From contig JAPLXH010000001.1 of assembly GCA_026396195.1 (NCBI GenBank), positions 1 through 54,827 of the forward strand: a stretch of 54,827 nt of DNA, in the 5' to 3' direction. The translations under genes were made by a program, and so were the position numbers. Every line of letters starts with the position of its first letter. The first letter of the stretch is position 1. This stretch comes from Candidatus Nealsonbacteria bacterium (GTDB taxonomy: Bacteria > Patescibacteriota > Minisyncoccia > Minisyncoccales > JAGGXC01). The notes beneath the pieces are model-generated. The model saw nothing but the letters and a program-made list of their open reading frames with translations. It searched no databases and was not told the DNA's origin. Below are positions 2,427-29,089 of the stretch, piece by piece.

Positions 2427-3077
2427 TCAGGTCATTTTATTCTTTAATTTTAAAGCTACCATAGTTTTTGCTTCGTCATTAGGATATGCCCAGGCATTCT
2501 CAAAAAAAGAAAATTTTACTAAACGATGCGGAGAAGTAGGAAAACTTGGATCGTGAATAAAAAAATATTCATCATCAAAACCCTTTAAAACAACGAAATG
2601 ACCAGAATAGCCTGGTTCATTATTTAATTTACGAGAATTAACTATACAGATAATCAAATATCCCTGCGAAAGAAAATTTTTTAAATCGTTCATTGTTGGA
2701 ATTCTCTTTTCAATTGGAATTTTTTTTATAAAATCTTTGGCTATTTTTCTTTCTTGTTCAATATCGCTGTGCTCAATTTGAGACTCTCCCACTTCTTCAC
2801 CATACTTATCAATCAAATATTTTCCGCCAAATTTGATAAATTTCTCGTAATCAAAAACCTCTACGTCCCTTACTTCAATGCCATGATCTTGAAGCCAGAT
2901 TAATCCTGCCATTGTCCAGGTCCACAATCCCTTAACCTTTGCCGTTATTCTGTCTAATTCTTCCCAGAAAAAATCTTTATCCGGCCAAAAGTATTTCATG
3001 ACCATTTTTAGAGACGCCTGATAACAGTGGGTATCGTCTGGATTTTTATAAAATGGTACTTCTTTATCTATCTTCAT
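2427..3077 (-). CDS. papain-fold cysteine peptidase, C39-like (Peptidase_C39_2-like)
   Basis: N-terminal DDTHCYQASLKMV (candidate catalytic Cys) and distal GYSGHFVVLKGFDD (candidate His) are in the order typical of C39-like domains. Confidence 0.5.
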   Translation of the reverse strand: MKIDKEVPFYKNPDDTHCYQASLKMVMKYFWPDKDFFWEELDRITAKVKGLWTWTMAGLIWLQDHGIEVRDVEVFDYEKFIKFGGKYLIDKYGEEVGESQIEHSDIEQERKIAKDFIKKIPIEKRIPTMNDLKNFLSQGYLIICIVNSRKLNNEPGYSGHFVVLKGFDDEYFFIHDPSFPTSPHRLVKFSFFENAWAYPNDEAKTMVALKLKNKMT

Positions 3078-6180: not shown

Positions 6181-6296
6181 GGTCCTTCGGCTGCGCTCAG
6201 GACACTTCGCCTCGTTCACTTAACCACATTAAACAAGTAAGTCGAAGGGCCTGCACTGAGCGAGTCCTGAATATAAATGAAGGACGAGTCGAAGTG
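6181..6296. repeat. GC-rich REP-like block immediately 3' of tRNA-Gln
   Basis: ggtccttcggctgcgctcaggacac and gcactgagcg units are shared with 779-824. Confidence 0.45.
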
Positions 6297-6367
6297 CTGC
6301 GGGGCTTGGACTCGAACCAAGATACATAGCTCCAGAGGCTATAGTCCTACCATTAGACGACCCCGCA
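6297..6367 (-). tRNA. tRNA-Gln (anticodon CUG)
   Basis: Hand-folded cloverleaf: acceptor TGCGGGG/CCCCGCA (U1-A72 as in Gln tRNAs), anticodon loop CTCTGGA, T-arm CTTGG-TTCGAGT-CCAAG. No encoded CCA. Confidence 0.9.
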
Positions 6368-6394
6368 ATGGTTCGATAAACTCACCACAAGTAA
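6368..6394. repeat. GC-rich element 5' of tRNA-Gln (ggttcgataaactcaccacaagta)
   Basis: Close match to 5900-5924, ggttcgggttagctcaccacaagta. Confidence 0.4.
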
Positions 6395-7303
6395 TCACAC
6401 TTTAAGATATTTTCTGATGGCAAGCAAGGCAGGAACTACAGACAAAGCCAAAGCGATTAAAAATTGAATTAAAAATAAACTTGACAGGTTTCCCTCAAAA
6501 TAATCTAAAAGATTAAATCCCGGGACTAAAATCGCTAATTTCGAAGAAAGAAAATAACATCCCAAGCTGAAAATTATAATTGTAATAATGGTGGCAACTA
6601 CTGCCGAAATTAATCCCTGAACCACGAAAGGGCCCCGGATAAACCAATTGGAAGCGCCAACAAGTCTCATTATAGAAATTTCTTCTTTTGAGTTGGAAAT
6701 TCCCAATCTCACGGTATTTAAAACTACCAATATCGCTAAAATAACTGAAATTAAAACGGCTAAAATCGAGGCTTTCTCAATGGCAGAGGTAATGGAAAAC
6801 AATCTGTTAATTATTTCTTTGTTTTGATAATAATTAATTTTATTTATAATTGCTTTAAAATTCGGGTTTTCTAAAAATTTAACTATTTGTTCATATTGAG
6901 AGGCCTGCCAAGCTTTAATGTTTAAATGGGCGGCAAGAGGATTGTCCCCTATTTCACTTAAAGATCCCATAATTATGGGATTGTCTTTGTGTTTTTGAGT
7001 AAAATCAGTTAAAGCTTTTTCTCTGGAAATATATTCAATATTTTTAACTTCAGAAATAACAGCAAGGTCACTTTTTACCTTTATCATCTCTTCTTCTTGG
7101 GCCTCTAATTTGAAATAAACGCTGATATCCGCTTTTTCTTCTAAAGAACTTATTAAAGAAGCGGTTAGCGCTTTAACGAAAAACAAACCCCCGATTAAAG
7201 AGGTGGATATTACCATTATAAAAACCGTGGCAAAAAATAAGCCCTTATTTCTCCACAAACCGTTCCAGCCAAATTTAAAAATTCTTCTTATTGCAATTAA
7301 CAT
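6395..7303 (-). CDS. ftsX: cell division permease FtsX
   Basis: Four-TM FtsX-like topology with a large loop after TM1. It directly follows and overlaps ftsE. Confidence 0.85.
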   Translation of the reverse strand: MLIAIRRIFKFGWNGLWRNKGLFFATVFIMVISTSLIGGLFFVKALTASLISSLEEKADISVYFKLEAQEEEMIKVKSDLAVISEVKNIEYISREKALTDFTQKHKDNPIIMGSLSEIGDNPLAAHLNIKAWQASQYEQIVKFLENPNFKAIINKINYYQNKEIINRLFSITSAIEKASILAVLISVILAILVVLNTVRLGISNSKEEISIMRLVGASNWFIRGPFVVQGLISAVVATIITIIIFSLGCYFLSSKLAILVPGFNLLDYFEGNLSSLFLIQFLIALALSVVPALLAIRKYLKV

Positions 7304-8052
7304 ATAAATCTGCCTTTTTGTTCATCTCTTATTAACTCGCCCTTGTCTAAGGTGACAACTCTTTTTTTAAGACCGTTAATTATTTCTTTATCGTGAGTAG
7401 ATAAAATAACGGTTGTCCCCATTTCCTGAATTTGGAGCAAAAGTTTAATTATATCTCTGGTATTATAAGGGTCCAGGTTGCCGGTCGGCTCATCAGCGCA
7501 AATCAATTCCGGCCTGTTAATTAAGGCTCGGGCTATCGCCGCTCTTTGTCTTTCTCCGCCGGAAAGTTCGTTGGGAAAATGATGAAAAAATTTGCCCAAA
7601 CCTACAATCTCTAAAACCCTGGGAACGTCCCGTTTAATTTCTTCATCGCTAAAACCCATCAATTCCATAACATAAGCTACGTTTTCATAAGCGGTTTTAG
7701 AAGAAATTAATTTATAATCCTGAAAAACAGCCCCAATCCTCCTTCTCATCAAGGGTAAGTGCGATGATTTTAATTTTTGAACTTCAATATTTTTAAAAAA
7801 AACTTGGCCTTGACTGGGTTTTTCTTCTCCTAAAAGAAGCTTGAGCAAAGTGGTCTTGCCAGCCCCAGATTTGCCGGCCAAACAAATAAATTCGCCCTCC
7901 TTAACATCAAAAGAAACGTCCTTTAGGGCTTGGATATTTTTAGGATAAATTTTGGTTATATTCTTGAAAGAAACCAAAATTTCTCCGCCCTGCCCTTGCT
8001 CTTGTTCTTCTTCTTTATTTATTAAGTTTGATTTCAGCTTTGATGAATTCAT
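7297..8052 (-). CDS. ftsE: cell division ATP-binding protein FtsE
   Basis: Walker [13 protein letters not shown] signature LSGGERQR, Walker [10 protein letters not shown]. Confidence 0.9.
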
Positions 8053-9125
8053 CTAAGTTGCCGTTTAAAACATCTTCGACTTTATTAGTTTCAAGATCGG
8101 TTCTCAGGTCTTTTACTAATTTATAAGGATGAATAACGTAAGACCTGATTTGATTTCCCCAGCTTTCCAAGCTTGAATTTTTTTTGTTTTTCGCGATTTC
8201 TTTTTTTTGAGATTCAATTTGCAATTGATAAATTTTGGCGTATAAAAGGTCCGTGGCTTTTTGACGATTTAATCCCTGAAGCCTTTCTGACTGGCAAGCA
8301 ACTTTGATTCCGGTGGGAAGATGAGTAATCCTTACGGCTGACTCCCTTTTATTTACATTTTGACCGCCAGGACCGGAAGCTCGAAAAACTTCCAATTTTA
8401 AATCTTCGGGTTTTATCTTAATTTCTGATTGTTCAATCTTTGAAATTTCCGGTAAAACCTCGACTAAAGCAAACGAAGTGTGGCGAAGGCTCTGAGCGGA
8501 AAAAGGAGAAATTCTTACTAATCTATGGACGCCGGCTTCTTTTTTTAAAATTCCGTAAGCGTAATTTCCTTTTATTTCCAAAGTTACAGATTTTATCCCG
8601 ATTCTTCCTTCGGGCCCCCCGCCCTCGCCAAAAGATTGGTGTAAAAATTTAATTTTAAATTGCTTTTTATGGCAAAATCTTTCATACATTCTTAAGAGCA
8701 TCGTTGTCCAATCCTGAGCGTCTTGCCCTCCGGCTCCGGCAAAAATAGACAAAACAGCATTTCCTTTATCGTGTTTGCCTGAAAGAAAAATCTTCGATTC
8801 TTCTTCTAAAATTTTCTGCTCTAAAAAATCTGTCCTTTCTTCTATTTCTTTTAACATTTTAAGGTCTGATTGCGCCAATCGATTCAACTCGACCAATTCA
8901 TTTATTTCATTTTTTATTTTCCAATAAGAGTTTGTTTCTTCTTTCAGAAAAGAAAGTTCTTTTATTGTTTTATTCGCCTCTTCCGGATTTGACCAAAAAG
9001 ACGGGCCTTGGTTTAATCTCTCTAACTCTTTAATCTTTTTGTCTTTTTTATTAACGTCAAAGACATTCCTCCAAATAGAGGATTTTATCTTTTAAATCAG
9101 CAATTTTTTCTTTAATTTCTTTCAT
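8015..9125 (-). CDS. prfB: peptide chain release factor 2, with programmed +1 frameshift
   Basis: Frame 0 runs ATG(9125)...GGAGG AA TGT CTT TGA C (TGA at 9059-9057). The +1 frame continues into ORF 8015-8896, which has SPF and GGQ (SGPGGQNVNK) motifs. Confidence 0.9.
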
Positions 9126-9194
9126 TCTAGAGATTATTTTAACAAAAAAAAGCTTAAAAGTAAACCTAAAAAACTAAAAGTCGAATTTGAATCT

Positions 9195-9269
9195 TGGAGC
9201 CGAGGAGAGGACTTGAACCTCCAACCTACGGTTTACGATACCGTTGCTCTGCCATTAAGCTACCTCGGC
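9195..9269 (-). tRNA. tRNA-Thr (anticodon CGU), CCA encoded
   Basis: Hand fold: acceptor GCCGAGG/CCTCGGC, anticodon arm ACGGT-ATCGTAA-ACCGT, T-loop TTCAAGT, 3' TCCA. Confidence 0.9.
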
Positions 9270-9285
9270 AAAATCTAAATTTAAG

Positions 9286-9356
9286 AGCGAGAGACGGGAG
9301 TCGAACCCGCGTCTCAACCTTGGGAAGGTCGCATAATGCCGTTATACTACTCTCGC
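9286..9356 (-). tRNA. tRNA-Gly (anticodon CCC)
   Basis: Hand fold: acceptor GCGAGAG/CTCTCGC, anticodon arm CGACC-TTCCCAA-GGTTG, T-arm GCGGG-TTCGACT-CCCGT. Confidence 0.85.
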
Positions 9357-11625: not shown

Positions 11626-11688
11626 TTATTTTTAATATTCTTGACGTATGACGTATATTGATTGTACGCATTTTTTTAAAAAAACAAA

Positions 11689-12108
11689 AGTCCAACTAGA
11701 CAGTAAGCCGAATTCTGTTTTCCCCGCTCGCAACTGCGTAGCTGTTGGCGGGGAACGGTAATCATTTATCTGGACCAAAAATTACTTTTTGGTTCTTGCG
11801 AACCACTTTTCCTTTTCGACAAATCCGGAGAATGTCGAAAAGTTTGTTCTTGCAGCCAATAAGGATTTTGCCGTTTCACCCCCAAGATTTCTCTCGGGAT
11901 TTACTCCCGTTTCCCCTAAAAAAGGGCTTTGCGGGAATAGTTTAACTCTTTCGAGTTAAACCGTCTCTGTTCGCACCTCTAGTCTTGCGACCGACGGCTG
12001 TTAGCCGCTATTTTTTTATCCCGATCATGACCGGGATGCTGTTCGGACTTTCCTCTCCCCAATTTTATCGGAGAGCGATTACCTAGTCTAGTTGGACTAG
12101 TTATAAAA
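11689..12108 (-). ncRNA. rnpB: RNase P RNA, bacterial type
   Basis: Minus strand has GGAGAGGAAAGTCCGAAC (P4 5' strand) and ACAGAATTCGGCTTAC (P4 3' strand). The P1 helix is AGTCCAACTAGAC/GTCTAGTTGGACT. Confidence 0.85.
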
Positions 12109-22360: not shown

Positions 22361-22417
22361 GTAGCAGAAGCTTCGCTTCGCTACGGGATTACGCGTTGTC
22401 ATACGCCATGACAACGC
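22361..22417. other. two GC-rich hairpins at the secA stop codon
   Basis: GCGTTGTCAT-acgcc-ATGACAACGC (22393-22417) encloses the TGA at 22399-22401. GTAGC-A-GAAGC-ttc-GCTTC-GCTAC lies at 22361-22384. Confidence 0.5.
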
Positions 22418-24909
22418 TTATATTTTTTCCCACTTCCACACGGACAAGGATCGTTTCGGCCGGGAGTTTCTTTAGTTTTGGGAAAATAAGCAGCTGAAGA
22501 AGCGTTATCCCTTAAGGTATTTTGATTTGGTTCTTTCCTTATCTCGGCTTTTAAAATAGATTGAATAATTGCTGATTCAATAATTTTTAAAAGATTTTTA
22601 AAACGCTGATGGCCTTCGGTTTTATATTCAACTAAAGGGTCCTGCTGGCCGTAAGCTCTTAATCCTACGGCATCCTTTAGGTCCTCCATGGAATCTATAT
22701 GGTCCATCCAAAAAGAGTCCAAAGTTCTCAAAGAGGCTATTTTTTCAATTTTTCTCATATTCTCTTCCCCTATTTCCTTTTCTTTAACCTCGTAATCTTT
22801 TTCTGAAAAACCCTGGTCTCGCACTATTTTTAAAATTTTTTCTTTCAGTTCTTGGGGCGAAGCCGTTAAAAATTCTTTTCTTTTCCTGTAAATCGTTTCC
22901 CGGTGTTTGTTCATTACGTCATCATATTCCAAAACGTGCTTTCGAATGTCAAAATTCATGCCTTCAATTTTTGATTGGGCAGACTCAATGGCGTTGGAAA
23001 TTAACTTGGCTTCTATGGGCTGGTCTTCGGGAATGTTTAACCTTTCCATTAAAGATTTTAACCGGTCTCCGCCGAAAATTCTCATTAAGTCGTCATCCAA
23101 AGAAACAAAAAATTGGGAAGAACCCGGATCTCCCTGCCGGCCGGCTCTTCCTCTCAATTGATTGTCAATTCTCCGAGCTTCATGCCTTTCGGTTCCTATT
23201 ATATGCAACCCTCCTGCTTCTTTTGTTTTCTTGGCTTCATCCAGATTTGGCGGATTACCACCTAAAATAATATCCACTCCTCTGCCGGCCATGTTTGTGG
23301 CTACGGTTACAGCCCCTAATCTTCCGGCCTGAGCAATAATTTCACCTTCTTTTTCGTGGTGCTTAGCGTTTAAAATTTGATGGGGAATTCCTTCTCTTTC
23401 CAAAATCTGTCCCAAATATTCGTTTTTTTCAACCGACCTTGTCCCGATCAAAATCGGCTGCCCAATTGAATGTCTTTTTTTAATTTCTTCCACCACGGCT
23501 TTGAATTTTCCTTTTTCGGTTCGATAAATCCTGTCAGGCAAATTTTTTCTGGCAAGGGGTAAATTAGTGGGAATATTCTCAGCCTCCAGATGATAAACCT
23601 TGTCAAATTCTTCAGCCGAAGTTAAGGCGGTACCAGTCATTCCAGCTAATTTTTTATACATTCGAAAATAGTTTTGAAAAGTAACAGAAGCTAAAGTTTT
23701 TGATACGGGCTGTACTTCATTTCCTTTACCCTGAATATATTCTTTAGCTTCAGCTGCTTGATGCAACCCATGAGACCATCTTCTCCCTGGCATTAACCTG
23801 CCAGTAAATTCATCAACGATAATTATTTCTCCATTTTTTACCACATATTCCCTGTCTAAAATAAAAAATTCTTTTTTTCTTATGGCATTATCTATTTTTT
23901 TTAATAAATTTTGTGAATCTAAAAAATCTTTTTCTGACCAAGGACCATTTTCTGACCAAGGGTCTTTTCCTAAAATTTTAATAAAATTTTCTTGGCCTTC
24001 TTTTGTCCATTCAAATGTTTTTTGTTTTTCATCGATTGAATAATCTACTTCTTTTTTTAACTGTTCAGCAATTCTAGCAATCTGATAATATCTTTGCTGT
24101 TCTTCTTTCCATTCTTTTTCCGACATTAAAGCCGTTTCGGGCATAGATATTATTAAAGGAGTACGGGCTTCATCGATTAAAATGGAGTCAACCTCGTCAA
24201 CAATGGCAAAATTATATCCTCGCTGAGATTGATCTTTTAAATCATAAACCAAGTTATCTCTTAAATAATCGAAGCCGAATTCATTATTAGTACCATAAGT
24301 AATGTCTGCAAGATAAGCTTCTCTCCGAGAAATCGGCCTCAAAAAATTTTGAACTATTTTAAAGGAGCCGAGTTCGTCTCTGGCCTTATCTTGCTCTTCG
24401 TCCGGTTTTTTATAACTTGGGTCATATAAAAACGACTGCTCATGATTCAAGCAAGAAGTCGACAAACCCAAAGAATCGTAAATTTGACCCATCCAAACCG
24501 CGTCTCTCCGAGATAAATAGTCGTTGACCGTTACCACGTGGACGCCCTTTTCAGTCAAAGCATTGAGATAAACGGCCAAAGTAGCTACTAAGGTTTTCCC
24601 TTCTCCGGTTTTCATCTCAACGATTTTTCCCTGATGCAGGGCGATTCCGCCCATTAACTGGCAATCAAAATGTCGCTGTTTTAGGGTTCTTTTGGATGCT
24701 TCCCTGGCCAAAGCAAAAGCTTCGGGCAATAAATCATCCAAATTTTCTCCCTTTCCAATTCTTTCTTTAAAATCTTTTGTTTTTACTCTAATTTCATCTA
24801 AAGAAAATTTTTCGGTTTCTTTTTCAAAACCGTTAATTTTTTCTATCAAGGGTTTTATGCTTTTTATATATCTTTCATTAGAGTTCGCAAAAATCTTATC
24901 AAAAATCAT
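22399..24909 (-). CDS. secA: preprotein translocase ATPase SecA
   Basis: MKTGEGKTLVATL (Walker A), DEVDSILIDEARTPLIIS, and the C-terminal SEC-C zinc motif CPCGSGKKYKRCHG. Confidence 0.95.
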   Translation of the reverse strand: MIFDKIFANSNERYIKSIKPLIEKINGFEKETEKFSLDEIRVKTKDFKERIGKGENLDDLLPEAFALAREASKRTLKQRHFDCQLMGGIALHQGKIVEMKTGEGKTLVATLAVYLNALTEKGVHVVTVNDYLSRRDAVWMGQIYDSLGLSTSCLNHEQSFLYDPSYKKPDEEQDKARDELGSFKIVQNFLRPISRREAYLADITYGTNNEFGFDYLRDNLVYDLKDQSQRGYNFAIVDEVDSILIDEARTPLIISMPETALMSEKEWKEEQQRYYQIARIAEQLKKEVDYSIDEKQKTFEWTKEGQENFIKILGKDPWSENGPWSEKDFLDSQNLLKKIDNAIRKKEFFILDREYVVKNGEIIIVDEFTGRLMPGRRWSHGLHQAAEAKEYIQGKGNEVQPVSKTLASVTFQNYFRMYKKLAGMTGTALTSAEEFDKVYHLEAENIPTNLPLARKNLPDRIYRTEKGKFKAVVEEIKKRHSIGQPILIGTRSVEKNEYLGQILEREGIPHQILNAKHHEKEGEIIAQAGRLGAVTVATNMAGRGVDIILGGNPPNLDEAKKTKEAGGLHIIGTERHEARRIDNQLRGRAGRQGDPGSSQFFVSLDDDLMRIFGGDRLKSLMERLNIPEDQPIEAKLISNAIESAQSKIEGMNFDIRKHVLEYDDVMNKHRETIYRKRKEFLTASPQELKEKILKIVRDQGFSEKDYEVKEKEIGEENMRKIEKIASLRTLDSFWMDHIDSMEDLKDAVGLRAYGQQDPLVEYKTEGHQRFKNLLKIIESAIIQSILKAEIRKEPNQNTLRDNASSAAYFPKTKETPGRNDPCPCGSGKKYKRCHGV

Positions 24910-24965: not shown

Positions 24966-25063
24966 GGAATAAATAATGTAAAAATAAATAATCTTATCCA
25001 CAGATAATTTGAACAATACTATTAAAAGTACTATTATTAAATAAAGAAATAAATAAAAAATTT

Positions 25064-25270
25064 ATGGCAAACCAAAGGAAAAATCCGTTATCAATTATAA
25101 AAAACATTATATACGTTATTCTCTTTTTAGCCATTATATTAGTTACTTTTTTAATTATTTTTAATATTGAATTTGAGGAAGCGATCAGGTTTGCTCTTTT
25201 CTTTATCTTAGTGTTTTTATCAGTCGACCTTTTTAAAAAATTAAGAGAAGAAAATATAGTTAAAAAATAA
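25064..25270 (+). CDS. possible small two-TM membrane protein (68 aa)
   Basis: Plus-strand ORF ending about 25 nt before the bidirectional terminator at 25294-25323. The competing minus-strand ORF would read through that terminator. Confidence 0.3.
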   Translation: MANQRKNPLSIIKNIIYVILFLAIILVTFLIIFNIEFEEAIRFALFFILVFLSVDLFKKLREENIVKK

Positions 25271-25293
25271 AAAAATATTTTAAAAATATCAAA

Positions 25294-25323
25294 CAAAAAA
25301 TCGCCTAATTGGCGATTTTTTTC
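25294..25323. terminator. bidirectional rho-independent terminator (hpf on minus, small ORF on plus)
   Basis: aaaaaAATCGCC-taat-tGGCGATTttttt. Confidence 0.6.
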
Positions 25324-25426
25324 GAATATCGAAGCCAACCTAACCTCTTGAAGTAAAAAATATTATAAACTACTCCATTCATTAGGGGCGGAGTATCCCC
25401 TTTAGAGCAAATTCTTTTGTCCCGAT

Positions 25427-25816
25427 TTATCGGAACAAAAGAAAATTTTTAATTCTTCGGGCCATTCTTTTATATCTTGAAACCTGTTTTTGTTTATATC
25501 GGTCAATTTCTCCCTGTAATTCGTCCTTGACCTCATCAATTGCCAAATACATGTCTTCTTTAATTGATTCAGCTCTCAAACTTCTGCCGGGCAACCTTAT
25601 TTGGCATTCGGCTCGAAAAACTTTTCCTTTATGGTGATGATGAGTGGTCCTTTCCAGCTCTACCCAAGCCTCGTAAGAAGGTTTCCCTTTTTCAAAATCT
25701 TGACCTTTTTCCCCAATTCGCTGAAGAAACTTTTCCAGCTCCCCTATTTTTTTTTCAGCATAATCTTTCAGTGAGGGGGTCAAGTCAATATTGGTTGTTT
25801 TAATAATAATTTTCAT
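25427..25816 (-). CDS. hpf: ribosome hibernation promoting factor (RaiA/HPF family)
   Basis: MKIIIKTTNIDLTPSLKDYAEKKIGELEKFL is typical of the S30AE/HPF N terminus. Confidence 0.85.
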   Translation of the reverse strand: MKIIIKTTNIDLTPSLKDYAEKKIGELEKFLQRIGEKGQDFEKGKPSYEAWVELERTTHHHHKGKVFRAECQIRLPGRSLRAESIKEDMYLAIDEVKDELQGEIDRYKQKQVSRYKRMARRIKNFLLFR

Positions 25817-25849: not shown

Positions 25850-26719
25850 TTAAAATCCTAAATATTTGATTTCTTCTCTTAGTTCAATTTTAAATTTTTC
25901 TTTTACTTTTCTCTTTGCCAAATTAATTAAATTTAAAACATCATCGGCTTTAGCTCCGCCTAAATTGATTATAAAATTAGCGTGTTTTGAAGAAATTTGA
26001 GCTTTACCAATGATTTTTCCTTTCAGTCCGCATTTCTCAATCAGCTCACCGGCTGATTTTTGAGGAGGATTTTTAAAAACAGACCCGGCCGATGGAAAAT
26101 CTAAAGGGTGATTTTTGATTCGATAATCTAAATAACCTTTTATATCTTTTTTAATTTTGTTTTTTTCACCTTTTTTTAATTTAAAGACGGCCGAAAGAAT
26201 AATTAAATTTTCTCTTTTTTTAAAAATACTCTCTCGATATTTAAAACAACATTCATTTACTTTAAAAGCTCTGATTTTCTCGGTTTTAGCGTCATAAGCC
26301 TCTACTTCTCCTATAACATCTTTAATTTCCCCGCCAAAAGCTCCGGCATTGCCTCTTATTGCTCCGCCAACGGTTCCATAAATTCCTCTCGCCCACCCTA
26401 ATCCTGAAAGCCCTTTTTCCGCCGATTCATTGACCACTTTCGATAAAGAAACACCCGCTTCTGCAAAGACTTCAAGTCCTTTGGTCTTAAAGTTAGAATT
26501 TTGGATTTTTATAACTAATCCGTCAAATCCGTTGTCTGCAACCAAAAGATTGCTTCCTTGTCCTAAAACAAAAACTGGGATTTTCATTTTCTTTGATTCT
26601 CCTATCGCTCTGATTAATTCTTTTTTCGTTCTAGCTGTAAAAAAATATTTCGCAGCGCCTCCAATTTTAAAGGTTGTATAGGGAGCTAATTTAATATTTT
26701 TTTTAAATTTAGGAACCAT
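25850..26719 (-). CDS. murB: UDP-N-acetylenolpyruvoylglucosamine reductase
   Basis: PYTTFKIGGAAKYF, GQGSNLLV and the C-terminal SAGSVFKNP motifs. Confidence 0.9.
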   Translation of the reverse strand: MVPKFKKNIKLAPYTTFKIGGAAKYFFTARTKKELIRAIGESKKMKIPVFVLGQGSNLLVADNGFDGLVIKIQNSNFKTKGLEVFAEAGVSLSKVVNESAEKGLSGLGWARGIYGTVGGAIRGNAGAFGGEIKDVIGEVEAYDAKTEKIRAFKVNECCFKYRESIFKKRENLIILSAVFKLKKGEKNKIKKDIKGYLDYRIKNHPLDFPSAGSVFKNPPQKSAGELIEKCGLKGKIIGKAQISSKHANFIINLGGAKADDVLNLINLAKRKVKEKFKIELREEIKYLGF

Positions 26720-26741
26720 TTTTTTATTTATAACAGTTTTA

Positions 26742-26813
26742 GAAAAAAAACAAAAGGGCCGGAAGAGTTGACTCCAATTCTAAGTTTTTTAGTGAGTGCG
26801 TACCTTCCGGCCC
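26742..26813 (-). ncRNA. long GC-clamped hairpin plus U-run (terminator or short RNA) directly upstream of murB
   Basis: GGGCCGGAAG...CTTCCGGCCC (a 10-bp perfect stem, about 38-nt loop) followed by TTTTGTTTTTTTT. The loop carries CACTCACT and CTTAGAATTG, complementary to 26883-26919. Confidence 0.5.
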
Positions 26814-26840
26814 AATTTAAATTATATAAAAATTTCTTTT

Positions 26841-26919
26841 AAAAAGCAAAAGGCCTCGCTCGAGGGAGGTCTTTTGCCAACTTTAGAATTGTAATCCGAT
26901 AAATCAGATTACACTCACT
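26841..26919 (-). ncRNA. candidate small RNA of about 80 nt (5' single strand, hairpin, single strand, terminator)
   Basis: Predicted TSS lies after the promoter at 26926-26953. Hairpin GTAATCTGA-tttA-TCGGATTAC (26891-26912) and terminator GCAAAAGaCCTC-loop-GAGGcCTTTTGC plus T5 (26841-26877). Confidence 0.4.
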
Positions 26920-26925
26920 GTTTAA

Positions 26926-26953
26926 ATATTAGCAAATTTAAAAAAATTGTCAA
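26926..26953 (-). promoter_or_regulatory. TTGACA-N16-TAATAT promoter
   Basis: Complement of 26948-26953 (-35) and 26926-26931 (-10). The -35 overlaps the end of the tandem repeat. Confidence 0.45.
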
Positions 26954-26992
26954 GGGCAACCTTGATCTTTACAAGGGCAACCTTGATCTTTA
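26951..26992. repeat. perfect 2 x 21-nt tandem repeat, each unit a CAAGG-GCAA-CCTTG hairpin
   Basis: caagggcaaccttgatcttta occurs at 26951-26971 and 26972-26992. The second unit contains the stop codon of the 26990-29089 gene. Confidence 0.9.
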
Positions 26993-29089
26993 TATTGATT
27001 TTAAAATAGGCTCAATATCTGTCCGCCAATCAGGATTAATTTTAAGGGCCTCATCAACTCTTTCTTGAACAAAACTCGTATTGCCGGTTACCCTTGCTAT
27101 TATTTGAGCGATTTGAATTGCTACTAAGTGAGATCTTTCGGCTCTAGGCTCTAAGTCTATGGCTTTTTTAGCTAAAGACATAGCTTCTTCGGGTTTATTT
27201 TTAAAAAGCTCTGTTTGAGCTAAAGCCCAGTAACCCTGTTGATTACCAGGCCCTATTTCTATTGCTTTTTTTAAAACCTCTTCTGACAAGTCAAACTTGG
27301 AGGAATCGAAACGTCCGTAAATATTATAAAGCCTGCCGAGAGATAAATAAGAAGTATAGAGTAGGGGTTGTTCTTTAATATTTTCTTTCATTGCGTCAAT
27401 TGCAAAATCAAGCTCCTTTTTTTGATAATCTTCCGGAACCTGTTGGGATAATTCTTGCTGGGAAAGCATTGATGCATATTGGGTAAAGGTTTCTCTTATT
27501 TCTTTTCTACCCAAGGAAGAAATAGCTAATGTTTTTTTATAAAGAGATACTCTTTCGTCAATATTTGAAGATTTAAGAGCCACTACCGTATAATTATCGG
27601 CCCTTAAAGGTTGAATAACAAAATTAAAAAAAGAAAAACAAAAAACAACAAAAATAATTAATATAATAAGAGGATTAGGAGGGATTAATTTTTTTTCAAA
27701 ATCTTTTTTTCTTTCAGAGGCAACACTTCCTATAAAACCTAAAATTAAAAAAAACATTACCAGACTGTTCACCATATCAAAAACAGTAAGATTTTGAATA
27801 AAATAAGCAATTAAAGCCGCAGAAAATATTACTGCAATTGAAAAATCAACTCTTTCGGTAAAATATTTTTTCCAAGATACATAAAAAACTGCGCCTAAGA
27901 TTCCAAGATAGCTAAAAAATCCGATAATACCGTTAGAAACCAATAAATCAACCACAATATTATGGGCTCGGTCATACCACAAATCAGCTCCGGCTTCCGG
28001 TAATAACATTTTAGGATTAAAATTTTTAAAATAAGCATAATGAAAATTCTCCGGACCCCAGCCTAACAATGGTTTCTCTAGCCAAGCGTTCCAGCCTGTT
28101 TCCCAAACATATAATCTTGCCTTAGCGGAAAGACCGACTTTTTCAAGTAAAAACTTTTGAACAAAATTATCTTGCAATTGGATTGAAAAAAATAAAACCA
28201 CAGCAAAACTTAAAGAAGTGACCGTCAAAATAATAATCGCAGCTATTTTTAAAATTCCTTTTTCATAAAAAATAATTTTTAATAAAAAGATAAGAATCAT
28301 TCCGCAAAAAAAAGCAATAGCTGCCGCTCGACCGGTACTTAAAAGTAAGCACAAAACAAGAAAAATAAAGCTTGCCGGATAAAAAATATCAAATTCTTTT
28401 ATTTTAATAAAAGAAAAAAAAGATTCATTTTGAAAGTTATGATTTTTTTTTCCTATATTAATAACAAAAAGATATAGGGCAAAAAAAGCGTTAAACATTA
28501 AATAAGTAGCCAGAAAAGAACTGTTTCCCAGAGTAGCCCCTCCTCGAGTGCCCAAACCCATTTTTTCAAGAGGATTAATCTTGGTTTGGCCTAAAAGCAT
28601 TAAAAAACCTATTAAGATAGAAACCATTATCGAAAATTCAAAAATTCTAAACCAGTCCTTTCTTTTAAAAACAGAAGAAACAACTATGAAAAAAGTAAAA
28701 AGATGAAACCACATTAAAAGACCCGTCATTCTTTCGTATTTTGACCAAAAACTCTGAGAAAAATCCGCTCCGAAAACAGAGGAAACAATAGAGGCAATTA
28801 TAAATACAATTATAGCTATTAATAAAATATTTAATTTCGGCCTATATTTAGGATAGAAAATCGCTAAAATTACATAAAAAAGAAAAATTATTTCGCTTAA
28901 ACCAAAAAAATAAAGACTTTTAGGCCCTACAAAAGGAAAAAAGAATTTGCCCGATAAAATGATGGGGGTAAATAATATCAAATATGTGCCTATTTTTATG
29001 ATAAATAAGCACATTCTTTCTAGTAATTTTCCTAAAAAAACAGAATAAGAATCAATTTTTAATTCTTTTATATTATTAAATTTATTCAT
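26990..29089 (-). CDS. O-antigen ligase (Wzy_C)-like polytopic membrane protein with C-terminal TPR repeats
   Basis: About 12 TM helices with a large loop, then a soluble tail with TPR-like repeats (GYWALAQTELFKNKPEEAMSLAKKAIDLEP). Confidence 0.7.
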   Translation of the reverse strand: MNKFNNIKELKIDSYSVFLGKLLERMCLFIIKIGTYLILFTPIILSGKFFFPFVGPKSLYFFGLSEIIFLFYVILAIFYPKYRPKLNILLIAIIVFIIASIVSSVFGADFSQSFWSKYERMTGLLMWFHLFTFFIVVSSVFKRKDWFRIFEFSIMVSILIGFLMLLGQTKINPLEKMGLGTRGGATLGNSSFLATYLMFNAFFALYLFVINIGKKNHNFQNESFFSFIKIKEFDIFYPASFIFLVLCLLLSTGRAAAIAFFCGMILIFLLKIIFYEKGILKIAAIIILTVTSLSFAVVLFFSIQLQDNFVQKFLLEKVGLSAKARLYVWETGWNAWLEKPLLGWGPENFHYAYFKNFNPKMLLPEAGADLWYDRAHNIVVDLLVSNGIIGFFSYLGILGAVFYVSWKKYFTERVDFSIAVIFSAALIAYFIQNLTVFDMVNSLVMFFLILGFIGSVASERKKDFEKKLIPPNPLIILIIFVVFCFSFFNFVIQPLRADNYTVVALKSSNIDERVSLYKKTLAISSLGRKEIRETFTQYASMLSQQELSQQVPEDYQKKELDFAIDAMKENIKEQPLLYTSYLSLGRLYNIYGRFDSSKFDLSEEVLKKAIEIGPGNQQGYWALAQTELFKNKPEEAMSLAKKAIDLEPRAERSHLVAIQIAQIIARVTGNTSFVQERVDEALKINPDWRTDIEPILKSI

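Follow-up and report, generated by a model that had tools for sequence, protein, structure and literature searches.

The spacer between murB and a gene for a Wzy_C-domain protein, in a 54.8-kb stretch of DNA from a Candidatus Nealsonbacteria bacterium (contig JAPLXH010000001.1, positions 1 to 54,827; here called the window), contains two short elements, RNA1 and RNA2, all features of which lie on the minus strand. Comparison with about 60 related loci establishes, at the level of predicted transcripts, that RNA1 and RNA2 are separate, independently transcribed, terminator-ended small RNA genes and that their products have co-evolved to pair with each other. An earlier note on this DNA, made from the window alone, had proposed two terminator-ended RNAs with crossing complementarity; the promoter that each predicted gene carries, the conservation of the pair in relatives, and the compensatory changes described below bear that proposal out. 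The promoter, the RNA1 hairpin and terminator, the TATAAT box, and the U-run were all found where the note had placed them.

Two terminator-ended RNAs in the spacer upstream of murB

RNA1 is predicted to be transcribed from a promoter at 26926-26953 consisting of a TTGACA -35 box (26953-26948), a 16-nt spacer, and a TAATAT -10 box (26931-26926) preceded by TG, which gives an extended -10 element (TGCTAATAT, 26934-26926); its promoter score is 10 of 12. In about 55 relatives TTGACA...TTTGCTAnnAT likewise stands ahead of RNA1, as found by a scan that demanded this pattern and so did not measure promoter conservation independently. The RNA itself would span about 79 nt (26841-26919; 74.3 bits, E = 4e-14, with covariance model R2). 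It begins with a single-stranded a-box (AGUGAGUG, nt 1-8, 26919-26912), followed by H1, a 9-bp hairpin with a UUUA loop (26912-26891), the b-box in the single-stranded middle (CAAUUCUAAAGUU, 26891-26879; CAAUUCUAAAG at 26891-26881), and a G+C-rich terminator stem-loop with the arms GCAAAAGACCUC and GAGGCCUUUUGC (26877-26846), which ends in a U5 tail (26845-26841). H1 and the terminator are 96% paired in 53 RNA1 homologs, with changes on both sides at 16 of the 17 pairs. A 186-nt stretch here folds with an energy of -54.1 kcal/mol (z = -4.87 against shuffled sequences).

The loop of the RNA1 terminator (26858-26865 in the window) is much more conserved than termination would require and reads CCUCCCUCGAGCGAGG in many species. 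Its central hexamer is palindromic even when altered (CUCGAG, CUUAAG, CAUAUG, and CUAUAG). As such a center cannot pair inside its own hairpin, the loop may hold a kissing-dimer or protein-binding site.

RNA2 is a stem-loop of about 58 nt followed by a 13-nt U-tract (26743-26813; covariance model R1 places it at 26754-26814 with 81.4 bits and E = 2.7e-16). Its promoter (26821-26849) has a perfect TATAAT -10 box (26826-26821), a 17-nt spacer, and a weak -35 box, TTGCTT (26849-26844), that coincides in part with the RNA1 terminator (3' arm and U-tail). The -35 box has only three matches of six, so that this promoter was not listed by promoter scoring and was read directly off the sequence. The TATAAT box lies 14 nt beyond the end of RNA1, and the two units stand in tandem in the window, 27 nt apart; RNA2 homologs have a TAnAAT-type box 5 to 7 nt ahead of the first G of RNA2. 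The closing stem, P1 (26813-26803 with 26766-26756; GGGCCGGAAGG), has 11 bp, one more than the 10-bp clamp first described, and holds out a loop of 36 nt that carries an a' box (CACUCACU, 26798-26791), an A6 linker (26790-26785), and a b' box (CUUAGAAUUGGAGU, 26784-26771). The U-tract, U4GU8, occupies 26755-26743. Over 68 distinct sequences P1 is 96.7% paired, with both-side changes at 10 of 11 pairs, compared with 45 to 60% pairing in controls in which the arms were slid. The RNA2 alignment has 13 invariant and 13 near-invariant columns. A 4-bp ACUC/GAGU helix within RNA2 is 98% paired yet almost invariant, and hence uninformative on covariation. An apical intramolecular helix (CUAA/UUAG) was rejected, as it is broken without compensation in several species and the same positions covary with RNA1. 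In one locus (L018) the 3' half of RNA2 recurs in degenerate form (CACTCTTTAAAAAGTTTTTTGGAAATAACCAGCGGAGGCCCATTAAGG) about 60 to 100 nt downstream of RNA2, before murB.

The first comparison was with RNA2-like hairpins upstream of murB in two distant relatives (loci L001 and L003). A pattern for the RNA2 loop matched 14 genomes of the candidate phyla radiation (CPR), most of which have an RNA1-like gene just upstream, and a pattern combining the promoter with the a-box yielded about 55 RNA1 genes together with unrelated Firmicutes promoters that merely have an extended -10 box. Covariance model R1 found RNA2 in about 60 species-level loci of Paceibacteria/Parcubacteria, in single copy apart from the extra 3' half in L018, and model R2 found one copy of RNA1 per locus searched. 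Of the 61 loci with RNA2, about 55 have RNA1 as well. As far as sequence can tell, a unit with its own promoter and intrinsic terminator, as expected of a trans-encoded small RNA (sRNA), is therefore conserved in about 55 to 60 species.

Pairing between RNA1 and RNA2

In the window, the a' box is the exact complement of the first 8 nt of RNA1, and the segment CUUAGAAUUG of b' (26784-26775) matches CAAUUCUAA(A)G over 9 contiguous base pairs, or 10 with one bulged A; an inverted-repeat search lengthens the b:b' match to 14 nt (86%). Helix a:a' has an energy of -13.6 kcal/mol and helix b:b' one of -14.7 kcal/mol. That the loop boxes of RNA2 complement the single-stranded segments of RNA1, in the order a, b, a', b', had been read correctly from the window. 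Such complementarity is unexceptional in the window alone, where the same 301 nt contain 13 inverted-repeat pairs of at least 8 nt, mostly A/T-rich, and the case thus rests on conservation and covariation in relatives.

In 40 of the 54 distinct pairs, helix a:a' joins AGUGAGUG to CACUCACU, and elsewhere a change on one side is usually matched by a change on the other. Examples include AGUGAGGA with UCCUCAC(U), as in the pair AGUGAGGA/UCCUCACU (L093, L075, L061, and L053), AGUGAGCG with CGCUCAC (L120, L069, and L076), and GUGGGUG with CACCCAC (L002). Helix b:b' consists of two sub-helices, in which the consensus pairs ACUCCA of RNA1 with UGGAGU of RNA2 and CUAAGUC of RNA1 with GACUUAG of RNA2. 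Among the aligned columns, 28 loci have C-G and 13 have U-A at one pair, and 39 have U-A and 4 have A-U at another. In divergent lineages the helix has been wholly rewritten and is complementary still, as in L020 (AUUAUACAUUG with CAAUGUAUAAU, 11 bp), L079 (CAAAUGCCU with AGGCAUUUG, 9 bp), L018 (14 bp), and L055 (CUACGUC with GACGUAG).

The same signal is present when no alignment is used. Predicted b:b' duplexes average -15.3 kcal/mol between partners from the same genome and -12.2 kcal/mol between partners from different genomes, and none of 20,000 permutations was as good (p <= 5e-5); pairing of the aligned columns is 88.8%, compared with 86.1 +/- 0.3% under shuffled partners, a value reached in 0 of 500 shuffles. 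Because neutral drift would weaken same-genome and mixed pairs alike, the advantage of same-genome pairs reflects compensation. Counts of compensation include clade-level events more than once, and many of the events are independent. G-U pairs are tolerated throughout, which places the constraint on RNA rather than DNA. Conservation and covariation in relatives, on which the earlier note had staked its proposal, were thus found for both the a/a' and b/b' pairings, and they give the pairing of this putative sRNA with its partner compensatory support.

In the complex that these helices predict, RNA1 would offer two single-stranded boxes, its first 8 nt (a) and the stretch of 13 to 16 nt between hairpin and terminator (b), and both would dock in the 36-nt loop of RNA2, which presents a', an A-rich linker of 3 to 6 nt, and b' (GACUUAG-AAU-UGGAGU). 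Since the order is a-b on RNA1 and a'-b' on RNA2, the heterodimer would be an intermolecular pseudoknot. The RNA2 stem, helix a:a', the RNA1 hairpin, and helix b2 (part of b:b') would meet in a four-way junction, and the RNA2 linker would connect helices a and b1 at their distal ends, beside the RNA1 terminator stem. Each RNA, when free, could instead form an internal 4-bp GAGU:ACUC helix, between a and b2 in RNA1 and between a' and b2' in RNA2, so that dimerization would be a partner swap. An antisense copy of the RNA2 loop would read b2, b1, a; the RNA1 boxes stand in a circularly permuted order, a, b2, b1.

Gene order and relation to murB

RNA1, RNA2, and murB are co-oriented in that order, with RNA2 directly upstream of murB, in 47 of the 61 loci. 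In 12 others RNA2 and its promoter are inverted in place, so that RNA2 converges with RNA1 and diverges from murB; a U-tract terminator is always present in these. The inverted loci are scattered among tandem ones in a neighbor-joining tree of MurB, a single-gene tree of modest resolution, which implies that RNA2 was flipped several times. RNA1 lies 0.6 to 1.3 kb upstream in seven loci, with an intervening gene wherever this was inspected; in two loci it is on the opposite strand, at a distance of about 3 kb. The inversion of RNA2 in 12 loci, the separation of the units by 0.6 to 3 kb in at least 9, and the promoter and terminator predicted for each unit are the grounds for treating RNA1 and RNA2 as two transcripts.

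In 59 of 61 loci, no more than about 300 nt separate RNA2 from the start of murB. The murB AUG of 11 tandem species comes 4 to 8 nt after the closing stem, leaving neither a U-tract terminator nor room for a promoter, and in those approximately 11 species RNA2 must be the 5' leader of murB. In others RNA2 shares or abuts the murB promoter region. The window murB starts with an ATG at 26719, 23 nt past the U-run of RNA2 (the distance had been given as 22 nt), and a putative murB promoter with an extended -10 box (TGTTATAAA, 26727-26735, minus strand) lies 7 nt ahead of the ATG. A TGnTAnnAT motif is found 6 to 8 nt ahead of the murB ATG in all 12 inverted species and in several tandem ones. This spacing implies that the murB mRNA would be leaderless in the window and in many of these species, and RNA2 in the window looks free-standing, with a probably leaderless murB behind it. 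In inverted loci the extended -10 box of murB and the -35 region of the divergently oriented RNA2 promoter overlap, and the two promoters may compete there.

The murB gene has no Shine-Dalgarno (SD) sequence, as had been pointed out. The genome is SD-poor throughout: an SD-like motif is found within 20 nt of the start in 6 of the 50 window open reading frames (ORFs) of at least 120 aa, and the sequence ahead of the starts is A-rich. This organism is thus predicted to initiate translation largely independently of an SD, and the missing SD was rejected as a peculiarity of murB. A match of AAUUGGAG to murB codons for K-I-G-G was likewise set aside as a codon-level coincidence.

Function of the RNA pair

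On balance, RNA1 and RNA2 are somewhat more plausibly than otherwise a dedicated antisense-type pair of sRNA and partner tied to the expression of murB. One RNA would gate or titrate the other, and the output would reach murB through RNA2. The pair is new, and its general kind is already known.

Several observations weigh against this interpretation. Among the RNA runs searched for this organism, none contains it, and the RNA ends and expression are predictions from sequence. A 234-nt contig from a wastewater library labeled RNA-Seq, from a 94%-identical relative, runs from about 6 nt inside RNA1 through RNA2 to 35 nt inside murB; it could be a read-through transcript or, equally, DNA. Complementarity of RNA1 and RNA2 to the 90 nt at the start of murB is not significant (mean z of -0.56 and -0.22 in tandem loci and of -0.43 and +0.42 in inverted ones), a scan of the 50 gene starts in the window found no site that fits both boxes, and no target besides the partner RNA came to light in these searches. 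Helix a keeps an uncompensated C.A in two species (L034 and L080). The linker is just 3 nt long in most species, and the simultaneous formation of helices a and b is a prediction of the model. Conservation of the RNA2 loop exceeds what pairing needs, which hints at a further partner besides RNA1; all of the conserved loop nucleotides can, at least formally, be assigned to pairing with RNA1.

A second possibility, rather doubtful and still the strongest of the alternatives, is that RNA2 acts in cis as a leader or attenuator of murB and that RNA1 is a trans effector altering termination at P1 and the U-tract, processing, stability, or translation. The co-orientation of RNA2 directly upstream of murB in most loci and the 11 species in which RNA2 must be a leader are consistent with this explanation, as is the presence in the RNA2 loop of the sole nearby SD-like GGAG, which the ACUCCA box of RNA1 covers. 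A cis-acting leader or riboswitch should always be a 5' untranslated region on the strand of its gene, whereas RNA2 is transcribed away from murB in the 12 inverted loci, which are not one aberrant lineage, being spread over the MurB tree, and in which murB has its own -10 box. The inverted species keep the pairing with fresh compensations (L113, L057/L107, and L068), and the retention of pairing where RNA2 is detached from murB argues that its primary role cannot be purely cis-acting. In the window itself, the strong U4GU8 terminator and the separate murB -10 box intervene between RNA2 and the coding sequence. RNA1, moreover, contacts the loop of RNA2, neither P1 nor the start region. The suggestion in the earlier note of an attenuator of murB therefore may apply in the species in which RNA2 is the leader, and is at odds with the inverted loci and with the window.

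It is considerably less probable that the two RNAs are halves of one obligate structured RNA, a heterodimer that acts as a protein-binding (ribonucleoprotein) scaffold, a sensor, or a ribozyme rather than as regulator and target. The same low probability attaches to the fuller version, in which a closed assembly with a four-way junction, a nicked three-way junction, and crossing helices would be specific to Paceibacteria and coupled to the synthesis of peptidoglycan precursors; tertiary or protein contacts would then account for the conservation of the linkers and for the palindrome in the RNA1 terminator loop. The conservation of unpaired RNA2 linker nucleotides (..AG before a', the AAA linker, AAU, and UAAC) and of a palindromic hexamer needless for a mere terminator would fit such an assembly, as would the presence of one RNA1 and one RNA2 per locus (two RNA2 in L018) and the co-location of the partners in about 55 of 61 loci. 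However, no conserved protein gene other than murB was seen near the pair in the loci compared or in the Pfam annotation of the window. The distant lineages L018, L020, and L079 rewrite their loops freely with complementarity kept, which is more like pure base pairing than a catalytic core, and the absence of the pair from many related murB loci indicates that it is not essential housekeeping. Were it the heterodimer that functions, it would rank among the rare two-piece structured RNAs found in nature.

A single transcript folding into a riboswitch-like or attenuating H-type pseudoknot upstream of murB, also raised by the earlier note, would suit the tandem units of the window, the order a, b, a', b', and the library contig that covers both units, and is nevertheless very improbable, since the units are on opposite strands or separated by a gene in at least 21 species, which excludes a unimolecular pseudoknot or riboswitch as a general mechanism, RNA1 has a strong terminator, a TATAAT box precedes RNA2 in the homologs inspected, and no Rfam riboswitch matches. 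Equally remote is a DNA-level feature, such as recombination inverted repeats or an invertible switch, or chance in A/T-rich DNA: RNA2 has flipped several times and short A/T-rich inverted repeats are common in the spacer, but the flipped unit is the entire RNA2 gene with its promoter and not the a-to-a' segment, Pfam reveals no recombinase gene nearby in the window, the acceptance of G-U and not of A-C is a signature of RNA, and the compensatory changes with the same- versus mixed-genome test exclude chance.

A large part of bacterial diversity belongs to the CPR, whose members have tiny genomes with few recognizable regulators; to our knowledge, almost no regulatory RNAs have been described from them. 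RNA1 and RNA2 make up a compact RNA-RNA module, defined in sequence, for which the natural evidence of intermolecular pairing is unusually clear, in the form of independent compensatory variants in dozens of species. The module adjoins an essential cell wall gene and offers an entry point to riboregulation in uncultivated episymbionts and to the way in which they control murein synthesis. The module is open to tests in vitro and in surrogate hosts, and its homologs form a natural library of orthogonal, partner-swapping RNA pairs.

Family membership and distribution

No known RNA family was recognized in the earlier note, in agreement with the Rfam results. At the gathering score, Rfam 15 found only the RNase P RNA and three tRNAs in the entire window, and for 26650-27050 at E <= 10 the top match had 21.9 bits, against thresholds of 47 to 80, the matches (rliF, BTnc231, and PyrR at about 20 bits) being noise. 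ARAGORN, which covers tRNA and transfer-messenger RNA including the two-piece form, found three tRNAs only, elsewhere in the window, and neither RNA has a T-arm or a CCA-type end. Neither contains an AUG or an ORF of more than 4 codons, as a type I toxin-antitoxin system would. Likenesses to signal recognition particle/4.5S RNA (GGUCNGGARGGA...AGCA), the preQ1-I riboswitch (A-rich tail), a K-turn atop P1, C/D-box RNAs, and external-guide RNAs were considered and dropped because the GGAAGG is part of a covarying stem, tandem G.A pairs are missing, Rfam has no matches, and the topology is wrong. Full-text literature searches returned no description of such RNAs in these bacteria.

The pair is restricted to a clade. 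It is present in 1 of 14 metagenomic murB relatives that were fetched irrespective of the RNAs and had adequate upstream sequence, and it is absent from 3 further Patescibacteria murB loci. Viral contigs contain no copies, with two chance matches to RNA2 and none to RNA1.

Some loci depart from the common arrangement. In L124, an RNA1-like gene (2648-2726, minus strand; 52 bits) whose 5' box is a variant, GUGAGGGU, follows murB and a tRNA gene. Within 1.5 kb of this gene no RNA2 is detectable; its partner may be located elsewhere or be more diverged. In L035, which is the same as L001, an RNA1-like remnant (AAGTGAGAG and a hairpin) lies about 150 to 230 nt upstream of RNA2, and an intact RNA1 lies about 1 kb further upstream, past a divergent gene; the remnant suggests a past duplication or displacement of RNA1. 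One metagenome-assembled genome (MAG; isolate Yes71-31) has two contigs that each carry RNA1, RNA2, and murB, in tandem in L108 and inverted in L113. The MurB proteins of the two contigs, L108 and L113, differ, with 42% and 49% identity to that of the window, respectively, so that the bin probably mixes two organisms. One MAG contains both L057 and L107, which are near-identical. Several records (L026, L029, L031, L033, L037, L040, and others) are labeled "uncultured Candidatus Saccharibacteria" or "Gammaproteobacteria" yet have a locus of the Paceibacteria type, and the MurB similarity together with the RNA pair suggests that these labels are unreliable.

Genomic context

The source of the window is a member of the Patescibacteria (CPR) from freshwater sediment; its MurB has 60% identity with that of a Nealsonbacteria MAG, and 97% of sampled window words are present in one sediment metagenome. 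The genes are on the minus strand throughout, including all 50 ORFs of at least 120 aa. Upstream of the RNA pair is the wzy-like gene for the Wzy_C-domain protein (26990-29089, minus strand; Pfam). On the other side, murB, encoding UDP-N-acetylenolpyruvoylglucosamine reductase (25850-26719, minus strand; Pfam MurB_C, 7.5e-35, and FAD_binding_4, 7.2e-19), is followed by a gene for an S30AE ribosome hibernation factor (25427-25816), a 114-aa ORF without a Pfam match (24994-25338), and secA (22399-24909). The RNA genes found by Rfam are a class A RNase P RNA (11688-12095) and, with ARAGORN in agreement, tRNA-Gln, tRNA-Thr, and tRNA-Gly (6296-9356).

The stop codon of the Wzy_C gene (26992-26990) is spanned by an exact 21-nt tandem duplication at 26951-26992 (two copies of CAAGGGCAACCTTGATCTTTA on the plus strand), each copy of which contains a small hairpin, CAAGG-UUGC-CCUUG. 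The promoter-proximal copy contributes the TTG of the RNA1 -35 box, TTGACA, and, with the T-run behind it, looks like a terminator of the upstream gene.

Comparison with known systems

Among the nearest counterparts are antisense complexes with a four-helix junction, such as that of CopA and CopT from plasmid R1, and RNAI/RNAII of ColE1, in which two stem-loop RNAs meet through loop or single-stranded contacts. As in CopA/CopT, the predicted complex has two intramolecular stems and two intermolecular helices about a four-way junction, a free 5' tail gives one of the helices, and each partner can self-close a helix that is then swapped. In contrast to a cis-encoded antisense RNA, which is fully complementary to a target on the opposite strand, RNA1 and RNA2 have separate genes that are adjacent or up to 3 kb apart and never overlap, their complementarity amounts to about 21 nt in three blocks, and the order of the blocks in RNA1 is the permuted one (a-b2-b1, not b2-b1-a). 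The pair is also chromosomal, beside murB, with no replication or toxin function in sight.

In sRNA sponges (SroC/GcvB, AgvB/GcvB, and the ChiX/chb spacer), one transcript offers a decoy-like site to the seed regions of another RNA, and sponges come from mRNA spacers or untranslated regions, much as RNA2 in some species is cut from or fused to the 5' end of an mRNA. RNA1 and RNA2 differ from these in being co-located in most loci with one-to-one co-evolution, in having no mRNA target in the murB 5' region or at the gene starts of the window, and in using two crossing helices instead of one linear seed match. A T-box leader likewise touches a separate RNA, its tRNA, at two sites in the same 5'-to-3' order on both, and RNA2 directly precedes murB as a leader in the species with 4- to 8-nt spacing. 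RNA2, however, has no T-box sequence, Stem I, specifier, or antiterminator and no match to the Rfam T-box, its ligand is a dedicated sRNA rather than a tRNA, and it is not always in cis with murB. In OxyS-fhlA, as predicted for RNA1 and RNA2, specificity comes from two short, separate helices of 7 to 9 bp between structured partners; OxyS brings two hairpin loops to the ribosome-binding region of an mRNA, whereas RNA1 would insert its 5' end and its linker region into the one large loop of RNA2.

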